Shown here piece by piece: positions 308-6,801 of a stretch of 8,561 bases of DNA. Positions within the stretch are counted from its first letter, which is position 1. Each line of letters opens with the position of its first letter. Where the stretch lies: the IMG/VR virus record IMGVR_UViG_2778261354_000018, positions 1-8,561 of that record. One strand, written 5' to 3'. Origin of the DNA: a virus (lineage: Duplodnaviria; Heunggongvirae; Uroviricota; Caudoviricetes). Below the pieces are notes generated by a model. It saw only the letters and a list, made by a program, of their open reading frames with translations, had not been told where the DNA came from and did not search any database. Made by a program: the position numbers and the translations under genes.

Positions 308-880
308 CTATTTATACAATACAACACCGCTCTTTTTAGTTATATATGTGCAGTTAGACGGTATATCTTTATTTATGAAGGACATTGCACCAATTTTAAC
401 ATTATCGCCTATGGTGAAACCGGAACCAAGTATAAAACAATGCGCCCCAATGTCCACATTGTTACCAATAATCACGTGGTCATGTTCATTGCATGATTGA
501 CTGCGGCCAATCGTGGTGTTTTGCCTGATTGTTAGATTATCACCGATAATCGCTGTGCTGGTGACAACAATGCCTGTATGATGAAGAATTGTAAGCCCCT
601 TGCCAATTGTTAGCCCAAGGCCAAGATCGCATCCATATTCGTTAAGCAATCTACGATTGATTTTTTTTGCCGCTTTTTTAGTTAATTTACCTCCATGGAT
701 GAACATCTCGTTAGCCAGTCTCCACCAAAAAAGATAATTTCGCGATCGTGATCTTTTCTCTCTTAAAAGCCTCCATATGGTCATATTGTCACGACGTATT
801 ACTTCTGCTTTCCAGAATTTTTTTAAATCAGTAGAGTTTCCAAACAAAACAAAGTGAATAGCCATTAAGTAAGATAACAC
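308..880 (-). CDS. Hexapeptide-repeat (left-handed beta-helix) acetyltransferase, CysE/WcaB/NodL-like; AT-rich moron
   Basis: Tandem [LIV]-G-x-x-x-x hexapeptide repeats (IGDNLT IRQNTT IGRSQS ... IGNNVD IGAHCF ILGSGF TIGDNV KIGAMSF) and an overall WcaB/serine-acetyltransferase-like layout. Stop TAG at 310-308. Start is uncertain: GTG at 880-878 lies 6 nt downstream of an AAGGAG Shine-Dalgarno and is preferred; alternatives are ATG at 865-863 or the ORF-track ATG at 913, which has no SD and sits only about 12 nt from the predicted transcription start. Region is strongly AT-rich compared with the flanking tail genes. Confidence 0.8.
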   Translation of the reverse strand: MLSYLMAIHFVLFGNSTDLKKFWKAEVIRRDNMTIWRLLREKRSRSRNYLFWWRLANEMFIHGGKLTKKAAKKINRRLLNEYGCDLGLGLTIGKGLTILHHTGIVVTSTAIIGDNLTIRQNTTIGRSQSCNEHDHVIIGNNVDIGAHCFILGSGFTIGDNVKIGAMSFINKDIPSNCTYITKKSGVVLYK

Positions 881-931
881 GATAATCTCCTTAATTATTA
901 TTTCAGACCACAAACGTTATAAGGTTAAGAG

Positions 932-1501: not shown

Positions 1502-4354
1502 CTAATCACGATCGCGGAAGCTGTTTATGCCACCGGACTGTCTGCGAATTTCTTCACGTACCGCCTCCCCCACCATTCTGGCAAGGTCGCGCGGATTCTG
1601 TGTAACCACGTTATGAAGGTGAACGTGAATTTCCCCATCAAACACAGGCGACGGCGCAGGCGCAGATGCACGCGATGCCGAACCCGATGATGGCGAAACC
1701 GGTGCCCACTGCTTAACCTCCACAGGACGGGAAGTATCCGGGGAAACAACCGGAGACACGGGTGAAAGCGCTGGCACAGGCGGAAGCCCGGGGGCAACAG
1801 TCGGTTCATTCCACTGCCCACGAACGGCCAGCGCGCGGGGGAGATTTTTAAACACGATATCGCCGGGGCCGATACGCTTACGGGCTTCCTGAAGCATACC
1901 CGACGTATTGCCTTCGATACCCTTGAGCCTGCGAAGAACGCCACTGGTACCGTCGTTTATGACAGAAGGCTTGCCGCCATTTTCATCATTACCCCCTTTG
2001 CCTCCCTTATCTCCATTGCCATCAACTGGTTTGGTGATAATGGCATTAACATCACCCTGAAGCAGGGAGAGCTTGCCCTGAAGAAGCGAAGCCCGCTGTG
2101 CATCCTCAAGTTTCCGTCGCGCCCTTTCCGCTTCATCTGGCAACACGCCCAGTTTTTCCAGTACCCAGGCAAGCCCGTCCATCAGCGCCTTCATAGGTGT
2201 AAGTGCGAGCGATATCGCCCCGCTGAGCACGCGACCAAAAGTTTCCCCGGCCGATGTACACCGTTCAAGAGATTCATTACTGGCCTGAACCGGCGTGAGC
2301 AACCGGGTAAACCAGTCGAACACCGTGGACACCGCACCCGATACCAGATCAAACAGCGGCGCAAACTGCGCGATACTTTCACGAACAGGCGCAAGGCCAG
2401 CCCACAGCGCCCGGAATGTGCCGAGCATGAAGGCCTTAACCTGTTCCCAGTGACGCCATATGAGCAGCGCCCCACCGGCAAGGGCAGCAATCACGAGACC
2501 AACAGGACTGAGAAGACCGGCAAGCGCCCCGCCCAGCACCGAAAACGCACCGGATACCATCCCCCACAGTGCCGGAAGTCCGGACAGGCGAAGGACAAGA
2601 CCACTGACGCCGGTTGCAACGGAGGAAAGCCCGCCACCAAGAAGCGCAGAGCCAAGCTGAAGTTTTGCAAAAACCCCCGTCAGCAATCCACCACCGACAG
2701 ACAGCGCGCCTATGGCCGTTGTGGCCGCAAGCACGCCCCCCACGGTAAGGGTCAGTGTGCGTACAAGCTGCGGGTTTTCCTGAATCCACGACCTGAAACG
2801 TTCGCCCACAGAAGCAACAGCCTGTACAAGCTCGCGGATATCATCAGTAACCAGCGACACAACATCACTGCGTATACCGGAGAAGACGCCAGACAGACGA
2901 TCGGCATCACCGCCGAGGTTATCCCGCAGGACATCCCCCATTCGCCGGGCGGTTCCCTGAACCTGTCCCATACGGTCTGATACCGTTGCCAGCGAGCGGA
3001 GAAAATCCGGGATCTGGTCAACGGCAAGATCTTCAATGGGTGTGCCGAACAGCGCTATCGCCGCATTAGCCCGTTCTGCCGGATCCTGAATCTTCAGCAG
3101 CCCGGCAGCCGTTCGCTGCATTGCCTCGCGTGCAGCTGCGCCTCCGCTGGCAATCGCTGACGACATTCTTTCAGCGTTAAGACCAATCATCTCATAGGCT
3201 TCAACGCTTGCTTTGGACATATCCGAACCGCGAATACTGAATTCCTTGACGGCATCGCCGGTTTTATCCAGGGCGAATTTTCCCTGCTGTGCCATGCTGA
3301 CAAGCAGCGTCATGGTTTCAGAGCCGGAAAGCCCCATATTGCGGAAGTGCGTGGAATACTCATGCAGAATTTCAGGAAGTTCAGCGCGCATTTCGGCAGA
3401 CATTTTCTGCATCCCTGCCGCCATCAGGTCGACCGCCTCCCCGGCATTTGCGGCAAGCCCGTTTTTCAGCATGATTCCGGCAGCCTGAACCTGTTCAGCC
3501 ACACTACCGCCGGTGACCTGAGCAAGATCCAGCGCCTGCCGTGTCACCCGTTCGAGCTCTTCAGTCCCCACCGTACCCAGTGAGCCAAGCGTGCTTTGCG
3601 TCGCAGCTGCCGCCTCTGAAATCATCGCAATATCCGTTGCAACACCCGACGCCCGGATATTCTGAATCATCCGGCTGTAGCGCTGCCCGTCATCCGCACT
3701 GCCGCCACTCTGTGCCGCAATAAGCGCGCCCTGCCGTTGCTCTTCAACAACAGGCGCAACCGCATGTCCGGCGGCGTACAGACCAGCACTGCCCGCCGCC
3801 ATGGCAAACGCTCCGCGCTGGCTTAGTTTACCGGCGATATCATGAACACGATCGTAACGTTGCTGTGCCTGCGTGACGCGCGAAAGCTGAGCCTGCTGGC
3901 GTTCAAGCTGATCGTTGTATTCCTGCGTTCGCCTGATTGCTTCCTCCACAGCGCGGTTACTTCCGTCAGCCCGTATGCCGTGGGCTTCCAGTTCGCGACC
4001 GGCCTCCCGTAATCGGGACTGGTGAAGGGAGTACACAGTATTAAGGCGCTCAACCTTTGCGGTCAGCGCCCGGAGAGTTTCCTGCTGCTTTTCCGTCAGT
4101 GCTGTGCCGGTGCGCTGTGCTTCCTGAAGGCGCTGAAGTCGCGCACGCGCATCATTCAGACTGTTTTCAGTCGAAGCGACCTGCTGACGGGCACGGGAAA
4201 ACGCATCACTGCTTCGCTGGAGTGACTTAAGCGCGTTCTGTGTGGACGAAAGGGATTCAGAAAGCGCGCCGGTCATTTCCCGGGCGCGCCTGACAGGTTG
4301 AGTGAGACGGTCGACCGCAGTGAGGGCTACACGTATCTGGAGATTATTACTCAT
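1502..4354 (-). CDS. T: Tail tape measure protein (P2 gpT family), about 950 aa
   Basis: Long ORF with coiled-coil-like N-terminal region, central Gly/Ala-rich hydrophobic segments and a Pro/Ser-rich C-terminal region, sitting between E/E' and U as in P2. Start placed at ATG 4354-4352 (MSNNLQIRV...), which overlaps the end of the E' frame (gATGAGTAA). The ORF-track start at 4408 is an upstream in-frame extension. Stop TAG at 1504-1502. Confidence 0.9.
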   Translation of the reverse strand: MSNNLQIRVALTAVDRLTQPVRRAREMTGALSESLSSTQNALKSLQRSSDAFSRARQQVASTENSLNDARARLQRLQEAQRTGTALTEKQQETLRALTAKVERLNTVYSLHQSRLREAGRELEAHGIRADGSNRAVEEAIRRTQEYNDQLERQQAQLSRVTQAQQRYDRVHDIAGKLSQRGAFAMAAGSAGLYAAGHAVAPVVEEQRQGALIAAQSGGSADDGQRYSRMIQNIRASGVATDIAMISEAAAATQSTLGSLGTVGTEELERVTRQALDLAQVTGGSVAEQVQAAGIMLKNGLAANAGEAVDLMAAGMQKMSAEMRAELPEILHEYSTHFRNMGLSGSETMTLLVSMAQQGKFALDKTGDAVKEFSIRGSDMSKASVEAYEMIGLNAERMSSAIASGGAAAREAMQRTAAGLLKIQDPAERANAAIALFGTPIEDLAVDQIPDFLRSLATVSDRMGQVQGTARRMGDVLRDNLGGDADRLSGVFSGIRSDVVSLVTDDIRELVQAVASVGERFRSWIQENPQLVRTLTLTVGGVLAATTAIGALSVGGGLLTGVFAKLQLGSALLGGGLSSVATGVSGLVLRLSGLPALWGMVSGAFSVLGGALAGLLSPVGLVIAALAGGALLIWRHWEQVKAFMLGTFRALWAGLAPVRESIAQFAPLFDLVSGAVSTVFDWFTRLLTPVQASNESLERCTSAGETFGRVLSGAISLALTPMKALMDGLAWVLEKLGVLPDEAERARRKLEDAQRASLLQGKLSLLQGDVNAIITKPVDGNGDKGGKGGNDENGGKPSVINDGTSGVLRRLKGIEGNTSGMLQEARKRIGPGDIVFKNLPRALAVRGQWNEPTVAPGLPPVPALSPVSPVVSPDTSRPVEVKQWAPVSPSSGSASRASAPAPSPVFDGEIHVHLHNVVTQNPRDLARMVGEAVREEIRRQSGGINSFRDRD

Positions 4355-4894
4355 CGTTATGATTCCCGGCTCTGGCAGCCGCCCGCTCTCGCCAGGCAAC
4401 AACCTCACCAGGACTCATACCGAATATCTCTGCGGGCGACCAGTTAAAAACAACAGCGATATCAGCAACAAGCTCTTCGATATCGTCAAACAGGAGGCGA
4501 ATTACATCACACCCGTATTCATCTTTTTCTTGCCGGGCAAGGCCTTCGGCGCGAAAAAATGCGTGGCCGCCGTGGAAAGCGCCCCGAAATCCTCCGTGCG
4601 CATGGTCGACAACTCCGCTTCAGTGAGACGGGGCTCTGTAACACGAGCGAGATAAACGCACATCGCGTTAAAGTTCAGGTTGTACAGGTGAGCCAGAGAC
4701 AGACCACGCAGCGAACCACTCTGACGGGCACGCTCGCCAATCTTCACATGTGTAATAATCTGTTCGCCACGGATGACCGGGTTTGTTAATTCAATGAGCT
4801 CACCGTTATAGGCAACCTCATTACCATCAGCAGCATCGAAGTCGTCGACGTTATCAGCACCGACAACCGGCATTTCGTTTTGTTTTTTTGACAT
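4347..4894 (-). CDS. E': E+E' fusion made by programmed -1 ribosomal frameshift (tail assembly chaperone, long form)
   Basis: After the slippery site, the -1 frame stays open for about 68 codons (RAEGLARQEKDEYGCDVIRLLFDDIEELVADIAVVFNWSPAEIFGMSPGEVVAWRERAAARAGNHNDE) and ends at TAA 4349-4347, overlapping the T start codon. Frame arithmetic is consistent with a -1 shift. This mirrors the E/E' arrangement known in P2 and the G/GT arrangement in lambda. Confidence 0.65.
4502..4894 (-). CDS. E: Tail assembly chaperone E (zero-frame product)
   Basis: Position between FII and T matches P2 gene E. AGGAG Shine-Dalgarno 9 nt upstream of ATG 4894-4892. Contains the slippery heptamer T_TTT_TTC near its 3' end. 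Stop TAA at 4504-4502. Confidence 0.75.
   Translation of the reverse strand: MSKKQNEMPVVGADNVDDFDAADGNEVAYNGELIELTNPVIRGEQIITHVKIGERARQSGSLRGLSLAHLYNLNFNAMCVYLARVTEPRLTEAELSTMRTEDFGALSTAATHFFAPKALPGKKKMNTGVM
4553..4559 (-). other. Slippery heptamer T_TTT_TTC (X_XXY_YYZ) for the E/E' -1 frameshift
   Basis: Minus-strand codons CAT TTT TTC (4561-4553) in the E zero frame. Plus strand reads gaaaaaa at 4553-4559. Confidence 0.6.
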
Positions 4895-4939: not shown

Positions 4940-5452
4940 TCAGCCAAGCCCCAGCATGGAGCGGGTGCGGTCAGGCAACACATCCTTGCCATCAACGCGC
5001 CAGATGAAGTTCAGCACGTCGATTTCAATAACATCGCTGTTATCAACGCTGAGCTTGTACCAGGTGCATTTCATCGCGTAGGTATGTTCGGTATCCTCAC
5101 CCTGTTTGGCTTCGCCCTTGTCGATTTCGACAATGCGCCCACGGGCTTCAATATCGACGTACTCAATACCCTCTTCGGAATAGTATTCACCCGAGAAGCG
5201 CACACGTACCGCATCAATTCCGGCAGCATATTTGGCAAAGATGTGACGGTCCACGCCGCCAACCGCAAAGGAGAGATCCAGCGCACCGTCATCAAGACCG
5301 AGATCCACCGCCGCAGAGCCTGGCATACCCGCACCGCGATACGCTTCAGTCTTGCGGGTCAGCTTGGGCGGAGTGAAGGAGGTCACCTTACCCAGCTTGT
5401 TGTCACCGTCCACAAAGACGGTAAACACACGAAGTTTTTTTGGCACAGCCAT
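4940..5452 (-). CDS. FII: Tail tube protein (P2 gpFII family)
   Basis: Translation (MAVPKKLRVFTVFVDGDNKLGKVTSFTPPKLTRKTEAYRGAGMPGSAAVDLGLDDGAL...KQGEDTEH...) resembles P2 FII. GGAGG SD about 7 nt upstream. Its ATG (5452-5450) overlaps the FI stop TGA (5454-5452) as TGATG-type coupling. Confidence 0.9.
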   Translation of the reverse strand: MAVPKKLRVFTVFVDGDNKLGKVTSFTPPKLTRKTEAYRGAGMPGSAAVDLGLDDGALDLSFAVGGVDRHIFAKYAAGIDAVRVRFSGEYYSEEGIEYVDIEARGRIVEIDKGEAKQGEDTEHTYAMKCTWYKLSVDNSDVIEIDVLNFIWRVDGKDVLPDRTRSMLGLG

Positions 5453-6648
5453 CAGTTACCTCCTCCCAGAGATGCAAAAGCAGAACTGAAGAACTCGTCA
5501 GTAAACGTCTGATAAAGTTCCATGCACTCCATAGGCGGAACGGGGGTGTATTTGTAGCGAATACGCACAATACCCTGACGAAGGCTGGTTGTGTCGTTGT
5601 CGATGATATCGAACCAGCATTCCGCCCCGATAAGTTTTCCGGCCGTGACCAGCGCATCCAGTTTTGCCTTGATAGCGCTGATCGCATCCTTCGCGTTGGC
5701 TGGCGTCAACGGTGAATCAACCACCTGAAGCTGCGCCTCTGCGATAGTATCAGCCAGTTGTTGCGAGGTACGGGTGTACACCTCAAAGGTATATTCCGAC
5801 GTATCCGGCGTACGGTTACCCCAGAAACGGAAGGAGCCGTCACCCTGGTGAATAAGCGTGGTCACTTCGCTGTTATTCAGCGTATTGGCATCGCTGTTTT
5901 CATCCTGAAGCGACCAGGAGACAGGCACTGATAACCCAAGAACATTTTTCACAGGCATGTTGGAAAGCGAACGATGCCAGCCCTGTTCGTGGTCCAGTCG
6001 GGCACGAAGGCCGCACGCATACGCCGCAGCAGGGAACGTTTCGTTTTTACCTGACACCGGGTTGAAGGCGATAAAATCAGGCCACAGAAGCATGATTTCA
6101 CGCCCGGAAACCTTTTTGCGGAATGCAATGGCATCAGACGGTTTTGTGCAGCCGGGGCAGCCGGAGTACGCAAAAGCACGCATCTTTCCCGCCACCGTCA
6201 CTAGTGCCGCCGTAACGGCGTCAGATTCAAGGCCGGGCGCGGCAAGAATGCGCGGGCGGTAACCAATACCTTCCATCTGTTCAGCAACAAGAAAGGCCTG
6301 CATCCCTGAATAGCTGCCGTCTTCTTCCGTGGTACCAATGACAAGCTGATCCTGCGTTTTGTTTTCCGGGCCTTCCTGAGCTGCCGCCACGCGAACGACA
6401 ATTACCCGGGTGCTTACCTGGTCAGAAATAGCCTTAAGAGACTTGTAAAGGGTACCTGTTTCCCCGGCCTTGCCCAGAACCGAAGATACGCGGGTAAGCA
6501 GTACCGGCTTGTTAAGAGGGAACTGTTCGGCATCCGCATCATCTGCAACGGCAACAATACCAATGACGCTGGAATCAACGTCATTAATTGCCGTCACCAG
6601 GTCGGTATTTTCCCTGACGCGCACACCGTGAAATCGTGTTTCAGCCAT
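5452..6648 (-). CDS. FI: Tail sheath protein (P2 gpFI family)
   Basis: Translation (MAETRFHGVRV...DADAEQFPLNKPVLLTRV...GLRARLDHEQGWHRSLSNMPV...FRFWGNRT...YKYTPVPPME) resembles P2 FI sheath protein throughout. Start placed at ATG 6648-6646, preceded by GGTGA at 5-nt spacing. In-frame alternatives are ATG 6660 and GTG 6663. Confidence 0.9.
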   Translation of the reverse strand: MAETRFHGVRVRENTDLVTAINDVDSSVIGIVAVADDADAEQFPLNKPVLLTRVSSVLGKAGETGTLYKSLKAISDQVSTRVIVVRVAAAQEGPENKTQDQLVIGTTEEDGSYSGMQAFLVAEQMEGIGYRPRILAAPGLESDAVTAALVTVAGKMRAFAYSGCPGCTKPSDAIAFRKKVSGREIMLLWPDFIAFNPVSGKNETFPAAAYACGLRARLDHEQGWHRSLSNMPVKNVLGLSVPVSWSLQDENSDANTLNNSEVTTLIHQGDGSFRFWGNRTPDTSEYTFEVYTRTSQQLADTIAEAQLQVVDSPLTPANAKDAISAIKAKLDALVTAGKLIGAECWFDIIDNDTTSLRQGIVRIRYKYTPVPPMECMELYQTFTDEFFSSAFASLGGGN

Positions 6649-6723
6649 ACGATTCACCATCACTTGTGTTTAATCTCGCCTGAATAATCCACTACTGGCG
6701 GGCAGCCTTCACGTGATGCGGGT

Positions 6724-6741
6724 TGTGTGGATTTTTTTACA
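6724..6741. promoter_or_regulatory. TGT-N12-ACA dyad resembling the Ogr/Delta activator site of P2-type late promoters, in the divergent FI/D intergenic region
   Basis: TGTgtggatttttttACA at 6724-6741. Its centre (about 6732) is roughly 55 bp from plausible transcription starts in both directions: about 6788 for D, with a -10-like GATGAT at 6776-6781, and about 6677 for FI. A single match of this short motif could occur by chance, so this is a candidate only. Confidence 0.4.
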
Positions 6742-6801
6742 ACATAGCCGGACAGAAACGACAGGGTACGCGTGGGATGATACGCACACGGGAGGGGCAT
6801 C

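Follow-up and report, generated by a model that had tools for sequence, protein, structure and literature searches.

The closest described precedent for the locus analysed here is the region between the P and O operons of phage P2, where a single site, labelled 'activator binding site; pO, pP promoters', is entered at positions 3057 to 3087 of the GenBank record. The mapped starts of the P operon (3016, minus strand) and the O operon (3127, plus strand) lie 55.5 bp to either side of the dyad centre (3071.5) of this shared box, 111 bp apart, and the starts of the P2 promoters PF and PV lie 56.5 to 58.5 bp from boxes of their own. The -10 hexamers of P2 begin at +44 (PO, GAAACT; PP, TAGCCT) or +45 (PF, GAAAAT) from the box centre. 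Genetic work on P2 established that activation by Ogr works through the alpha subunit of RNA polymerase. In P4, boxes are found at 9133 to 9150 for PLL and at 9493 to 9510, with a second box at 9531 to 9548, for Psid, and the role of Delta at these late promoters is well established. A single TGT-N12-ACA site of Smp131, read on one strand or the other, has been listed as both PP' and PO' (PMC3931495). The sharing of one dyad by a divergent pair of late promoters is well established in P2, and what is new in the case presented below is only its location. It calls for no new mechanism, since the P2 pP/pO pair already works in this way.

Gene layout and the inverted F block

The window, by which we mean the whole stretch of 8,561 nucleotides that was analysed, is the right end of a P2-like prophage (Table 1). 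Its nearest matches are prophages of 16 complete E. coli genomes, which are about 89 to 90% identical, are inserted beside serS, and carry the genes in the same order together with a complete P2-type head, lysis and baseplate region. FI and D are divergent and are separated by a gap of 153 bp (6649 to 6801). As judged from the ORFs and Pfam, the box in this gap has late morphogenetic genes to both sides, the sheath, tube, E, T and U genes to its left and D to its right. Since the F block, on the minus strand, stands between D and the plus-strand tail genes further upstream, D needs a promoter of its own, and it is the predicted target of a rightward promoter, here called PD. The Ogr_Delta gene follows 41 bp downstream of D.

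Table 1. Genes and promoter features of the window, in order of position
Feature	Position	Strand	Basis or remarks
U	1026-1499	minus	ORF list
Tape measure T	1502-4408	minus	ORF list
E	4502-4894	minus	ORF list
Tube FII	4940-5452	minus	ORF list
Sheath FI	5452-6648 (ATG 6648)	minus	ORF list; Pfam Phage_sheath_1; annotation of the E. coli relative
Leftward operon FI-FII-E-T-U, FI first	6648 down to 1026	minus	ORF list
Predicted PF start	6677 (+/-1-2 nt)	minus	From the -10 and the mapped P2 starts
PF -10, GATTAT	6689-6684	minus	-44 to -49 from box centre; spacing conserved
Weak PF -35-like element, GTGAAG	6707-6712	minus	17 bp upstream of the -10; putative -35
Ogr-type activator box, GTTGTg-N10-tACAAC	6722-6743 (centre 6732.5)		Sequence, uniqueness, conservation, P/O co-variation, matrix
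PD extended -10, TGgGATGAT	6773-6781	plus	TG 6773-6774, g, GATGAT 6776-6781; +44 to +49 from box centre
Predicted PD start	6788 (+/-1-2 nt)	plus	From the -10 position and P2 geometry
D (tail/baseplate hub, 'late control D')	6802-7947 (ATG 6802)	plus	Pfam Phage_GPD; relatives' annotations
Candidate ogr promoter -10, TAGAAT	7945-7950	plus	Overlaps the D stop codon
Ogr/Delta-family zinc-finger gene, 100 aa	7989-8291	plus	Pfam Ogr_Delta PF04606, E = 6e-16
hok-type toxin ORF	8421 onward	plus	Pfam

Both ends of the window also carry other genes. A hexapeptide-repeat acetyltransferase ORF (Pfam Hexapep; 311 to 913, minus strand) is cargo between the tail-fibre assembly gene and the U end, and the overlapping segment 105 to 412 is 89% identical to tfa-adjacent DNA that bears a serine acetyltransferase annotation in other coliphages. 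Downstream of ogr, the Hok/Gef-family toxin ORF (8421 to 8561, plus strand) and the sequence upstream of it (8254 to 8420) share about 88% identity with the 'MokW-like host killing' loci found in Stx phages. A search against Rfam found no RNA family in the window at the gathering score, hok/sok included.

Homologues of D were sought in 185,579 species genomes and in IMG/VR. Wherever D reaches 61% identity or more, FI lies upstream of it in divergent orientation, and at all loci where identity is about 50% the genes follow the P2 order, U preceding D on the same strand. By this comparison of sequences, a large Peduoviridae clade has the inverted FI-FII-E-T-U block as its normal layout, and the window is no special case. 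Among the members of the clade are isolated phages that belong to different ICTV genera, P88 (Xuanwuvirus), phiT5282H (Novemvirus), ST16-OXA48phi5.4 (Reipivirus) and 3LV2017 (Reginaelenavirus), and it also takes in PhiR44_2, a fragment of Serratia KSP20 and many prophages. An earlier sequence-only reading of this DNA had spoken of a rearranged layout, to which one activator site for both FI and D would be a compact solution; on the layout and on the special nature of that solution it has to be corrected, since the inversion is found across the clade and P2 pP and pO already share one site at +/-55.5 bp. In P88, opposite-strand alternative tail-fibre genes and a DNA invertase (25416 to 27564) adjoin the U end of the inverted F block; the paper describing P88 discusses neither promoters nor gene orientation.

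The activator box and its surroundings

The sequence-only reading had singled out one TGT-N12-ACA dyad between FI and D, and the coordinates that it gave were all correct when the sequence was read again. The minimal motif occupies 6724 to 6741 (TGT at 6724 to 6726 and ACA at 6739 to 6741, 12 nt apart), and the dyad symmetry extends to a perfect 5+5 arrangement, with GTTGT at 6722 to 6726 and ACAAC at 6739 to 6743. A warning had been attached that so short a motif might match by chance. This was justified for the minimal motif, which occurs twice in the window against 2.08 matches expected and, being no more frequent than chance predicts, was rejected as evidence. It does not carry over to the 5+5 dyad GTTGT-N12-ACAAC, which occurs once in the window against 0.01 matches expected (1 of 200 shuffles has a match) and is conserved in relatives. 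The dyad is indeed single, as no second box was found in 6649 to 6801 even with up to two mismatches, and it does lie midway, as had been proposed, both -10 hexamers beginning exactly 44 bp from its centre at 6732.5. In an E. coli relative (L001), dyad matches with zero or one mismatch occur in 47.5 kb only in two gaps between divergent late operons. The spacer inside the inverted repeat of the window is T-rich.

No canonical -35/-10 promoter was found in the FI-D gap. The only -35-like element in it is the GTGAAG on the FI side, and the D side is without any -35. Placed about 7 nt past their hexamers, the two predicted starts would each lie 55.5 bp from the box centre and 111 bp from each other, giving a predicted leader of 29 nt for PF, up to the FI ATG, and one of 14 nt for PD, with a Shine-Dalgarno sequence, GGAGG, at 6791 to 6795. 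Comparison with the mapped P2 late promoters, which had been named as a check on the proposed arrangement, agrees with it in the position of the -10s: the P2 -10s begin at +44 or +45 and the starts lie at 55.5 to 58.5 bp, and the -10s of the window begin at 44.

To describe conservation, 77 distinct FI-D regions were anchored without gaps on their best box, and redundancy was cut to 22 regions sharing less than 85% identity. Each of these 22 non-redundant relatives has the box; its ACAAC (+7 to +11) and two T residues (-9 and -7) never vary, although partly by construction, as these positions were used for anchoring. The strongest conservation elsewhere falls on the FI-side -10, where A, T and T at -49, -48 and -45 are invariant and C at -44 is 82% conserved. 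On the plus strand, TCACG at -24 to -20 is conserved in the 22 relatives, with an invariant C at -23, and lies within the -35-like cGTGA. In all 22 relatives, a hexamer with A at its second and T at its sixth position starts at -44 on the FI side and another at +44 or +45 on the D side, whereas at any other offset such a hexamer occurs in at most 9. The sequences between the box and the -10s are only 41 to 42% identical in pairwise comparison, and the outer distances vary, with indels common: the box centre lies 78.5 to 88.5 bp from the FI ATG and 67 to 85 bp from the D ATG. Spacing is thus constrained between the box and both -10s and nowhere else, as would be expected of a box that acts on both promoters.

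The box of the FI-D gap also has an equivalent elsewhere in the same genomes. In five complete genomes the P/O gap likewise contains one box with the same geometry, and the variable half-site of the FI/D box agrees with that of the phage's own P/O box: GTTCT and GTTCT in P88, GGTCT and GGTCT in both ST16-OXA48phi5.4 and phiT5282H, GTTGT and GTTGT in 3LV2017, and GTTGT and GCTGT in the E. coli relative. We considered whether the FI/D gap might be a recent copy of the P/O gap, or the product of gene conversion from it, and rejected this, as identity outside the box is 0.28 to 0.40 within a phage against a mean of 0.33 and a maximum of 0.41 between phages. Since the flanks are no more alike within phages than between them, the agreement of the half-sites reflects common recognition and not recent duplication.

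With a weight matrix built from FI/D boxes only, the P/O box was the best other match in four whole genomes, either strand being considered. It scored 18.5 to 30 bits, against 8.2 to 9.6 bits for the next-best non-self match in three of the genomes and 17.3 bits in P88. The window's own box scores 14.8 bits with the clade matrix, below a coding-region match of 16.5 bits at 5396 to 5422, a low score that is explained by the A/T-rich box spacer of its lineage and by its divergent Ogr. The P/O box of this lineage was judged from the E. coli relative, which is about 90% identical to the window; that box (GTTGT-N12-ACAAC) and the perfect half-sites of the window support the window's box independently of the matrix.

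Other box-like sequences were seen in these genomes. Matches of the GTCTT-N12-ACAAC type, at 16.5 to 17.2 bits, lie in coding regions at 5396 to 5422 of the window (minus strand, inside FII) and at 24370 and 19770 of the E. coli relative, and all are probably false positives. A third box-like match in P88 (18639 to 18665, minus strand, GTTCT-N12-ACCAC, 17.3 bits) lies in a lysis-region gene about 450 bp upstream of R and could be a PV-like internal late promoter or a chance match. No third Ogr box was found before the R-S-V tail genes of the E. coli relative (13700 to 14150). Between its lysis genes and its R-S-V-W-J-I-H tail genes, at 11765 to 14137, that relative carries two inserted cargo genes, of DUF6645 and DUF1378 type, and beyond them a strong terminator-like hairpin.

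A putative two-way late promoter and its alternatives

We consider it probable, at about 0.7, that the FI-D gap is a bidirectional, Ogr-dependent late promoter of the P2 type, PF/PD. That one Ogr-type site may serve both FI and D had already been suggested by the sequence-only reading, and the suggestion gains support from the position of the box, the spacing of the -10s on both sides, the co-variation with the P/O box and the nearby Ogr_Delta gene. Ogr would bind 6722 to 6743, a box with its centre some 55.5 bp upstream of each of two weak sigma-70 promoters without a good -35, and from this symmetric box it would recruit RNA polymerase to either side, presumably through the alpha-subunit contact assumed from P2. 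PF would then read leftward into FI-FII-E-T-U from near 6677, and PD rightward into D from near 6788, with PD transcripts probably continuing into ogr. Geometry and conservation are what point to activation of PD by Ogr.

A chance match without function seems barely credible as an explanation of the dyad. Although TGT-N12-ACA taken by itself is as frequent in the window as chance predicts, the ten-position dyad is expected far too rarely for this. In addition, its ACAAC half and the two T residues of the other half stand at the same place in every non-redundant relative, and in the E. coli relative near-perfect matches keep to the two divergent late-operon gaps. As far as sequence comparison can go, conservation refutes such an origin. 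The inverted repeat, with its T-rich spacer in the window, could also suggest a DNA or RNA hairpin, serving as a terminator or processing site, or a site for a protein other than Ogr. We regard this as very unlikely: both genes diverge from the repeat, so that no transcript is expected across it, and the T-run is specific to the window's lineage, the spacers of relatives being G+C-rich. Position -8 is C in most relatives while +8 stays C, which breaks the stem without compensation, and a left half-site that has either G or C at -8 with no matching change at +8 points to an asymmetric protein site rather than a hairpin. The same motif, moreover, forms the P/O box, whose P2 counterpart is annotated as an activator binding site.

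The box might instead serve PF only, as in P2, with D transcribed from an Ogr-independent extended -10 promoter (TGnGATGAT) that lies at the mirror position by coincidence. Neither a -35 nor an activator is indispensable to extended -10 promoters, and the D side of the window would have to manage without any -35; among the relatives, the TGn extension is found on the D side in 21 of 22 and on the FI side in 0 of 22. Set against this, the distance from the box to the D-side -10 is +44 or +45 in all 22 relatives, though the intervening sequence is 42% identical and indels are free further downstream, and the O-side promoters of relatives have the same TGn and the same spacing. P2 PO, in turn, is an Ogr-dependent late promoter that is annotated as using one box together with PP, and D is a late structural gene needed along with FI to U. 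On balance, we judge service to PF only to be unlikely.

The TGn extension was seen on the O side in four of the five clade phages examined; P2 pO is without it. Across L159 (P88) to L162 and L001, the TGn extended -10 belongs to the rightward promoters (O and D) and to none of the leftward ones (P and FI). In several phages a CGCGCGCG run was noticed that directly precedes the D-side and P-side -10s.

Returning to a box that serves both promoters, the FI/D box is most simply explained as the ancestral PF box, which we infer moved together with the F block when that block was turned round in the clade's ancestor; the FI-distal half-site is perfect in most relatives, as at P2 PF, which fits this origin. 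D would have lost its upstream operon at the inversion and gained a -10 at the mirror position. Only tentatively do we propose that the inversion made a one-way Ogr promoter into a second two-way promoter of the pP/pO style by re-use of its box, and that TGn gives the rightward promoters of D and O a built-in asymmetry. Such an asymmetry might allow basal or earlier, partly Ogr-independent expression of D, and of ogr by read-through; if this were true, it would be a regulatory difference from P2 that has so far gone undescribed.

Ogr is presumed to be the protein that binds the box. Its finger in the window reads C4-X2-C7-X24-C32-X4-C37 and is 46% identical to P2 Ogr over the finger. The protein is unusually long, at 100 aa against 72 aa for P2 Ogr, and with most clade relatives the alignment covers only about 82 residues. 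Its finger is of the form CX2C-X24-CX4C, compared with X22 in P2, and it is only 48 to 61% identical to the Ogr of most clade relatives, although D is 70 to 76% identical. In the same lineage the half-sites are perfect and the box spacers A/T-rich.

By comparison of sequences among relatives, ogr probably keeps a promoter of its own, as in P2: in 17 of 19 members of the clade, a near-consensus -10 hexamer that overlaps the D stop codon ends 33 to 42 nt upstream of the ogr ATG and, relative to the ATG, sits where the P2 ogr -10 is annotated. The D-ogr gap spans 7948 to 7988 in the window and measures 38 to 59 bp in the inverted clade, whereas in P2-order phages it is mostly 62 to 82 bp and A/T-rich, one locus (L033) having 38 bp. 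The shortness of this gap had led us to consider PD as the only source of Ogr, in a closed positive loop started by the TGn promoter, an idea that was dropped because of the separate -10 in 17 of 19 members. A hairpin occluding the ribosome-binding site of ogr was likewise rejected, as the fold is no better than that of shuffled sequences (z = 0.13).

A shared box between FI and D would explain how D remains under late control in the many P2-like phages and prophages in which the sheath-tube-tape-measure block is inverted, that is, in P88-like phages and their relatives in Escherichia, Klebsiella, Salmonella, Enterobacter, Serratia and others. It makes a precise prediction of two start sites and one operator. 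It would also provide a natural example of an operon inversion that was tolerated because the activator site is symmetric.

Comparison with P2, P4 and Smp131

The arrangement most like that of the window is P2 pP/pO. Each has one dyad between back-to-back late promoters, putative in the window, that have poor -35s and -10s beginning 44 bp out from the dyad centre; the starts, known from mapping in P2 and predicted in the window, lie 55.5 bp to each side, 111 bp apart. Both phages encode an Ogr_Delta zinc-finger activator. The P2 site, however, serves packaging and head genes, whereas the box of the window would serve tail genes (the FI operon and D), and an FI/D box exists only in phages with an inverted F block. 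The half-sites differ as well, being GTTGT and GATGG in the P2 dyad (written on equivalent strands) and a perfect GTTGT and ACAAC in the window, and P2 pO is without TGn, whereas the rightward promoter of the window has a TGn extended -10.

P2 pF, the promoter of the FI-FII-E-T-U-D operon, is homologous to PF and has the same first gene, FI. The distance from its box to the FI ATG is 82.5 bp, close to the 84.5 bp of the window and inside the clade's range of 78.5 to 88.5 bp. Like most clade relatives, P2 pF has a perfect GTTGT in the FI-distal half-site and a degenerate proximal half, whereas the window is perfect in both. P2 pF also transcribes D and reads into ogr, with nothing divergent close by; in the window, by contrast, D is cut off from the F operon and lies on the other side of the box.

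P4 Psid and PLL resemble the window in having TGT-N12-ACA boxes about 55 bp upstream of the expected starts, in divergent late units, but their boxes are separate, about 400 bp apart, with no common site. Smp131, from Stenotrophomonas, has one TGT-N12-ACA site on both strands for divergent late promoters, PP' and PO', as is proposed for the window; its site, however, is at the P/O position, its tail operons are rearranged in another way, and a common FI/D site is not described for it (PMC3931495).
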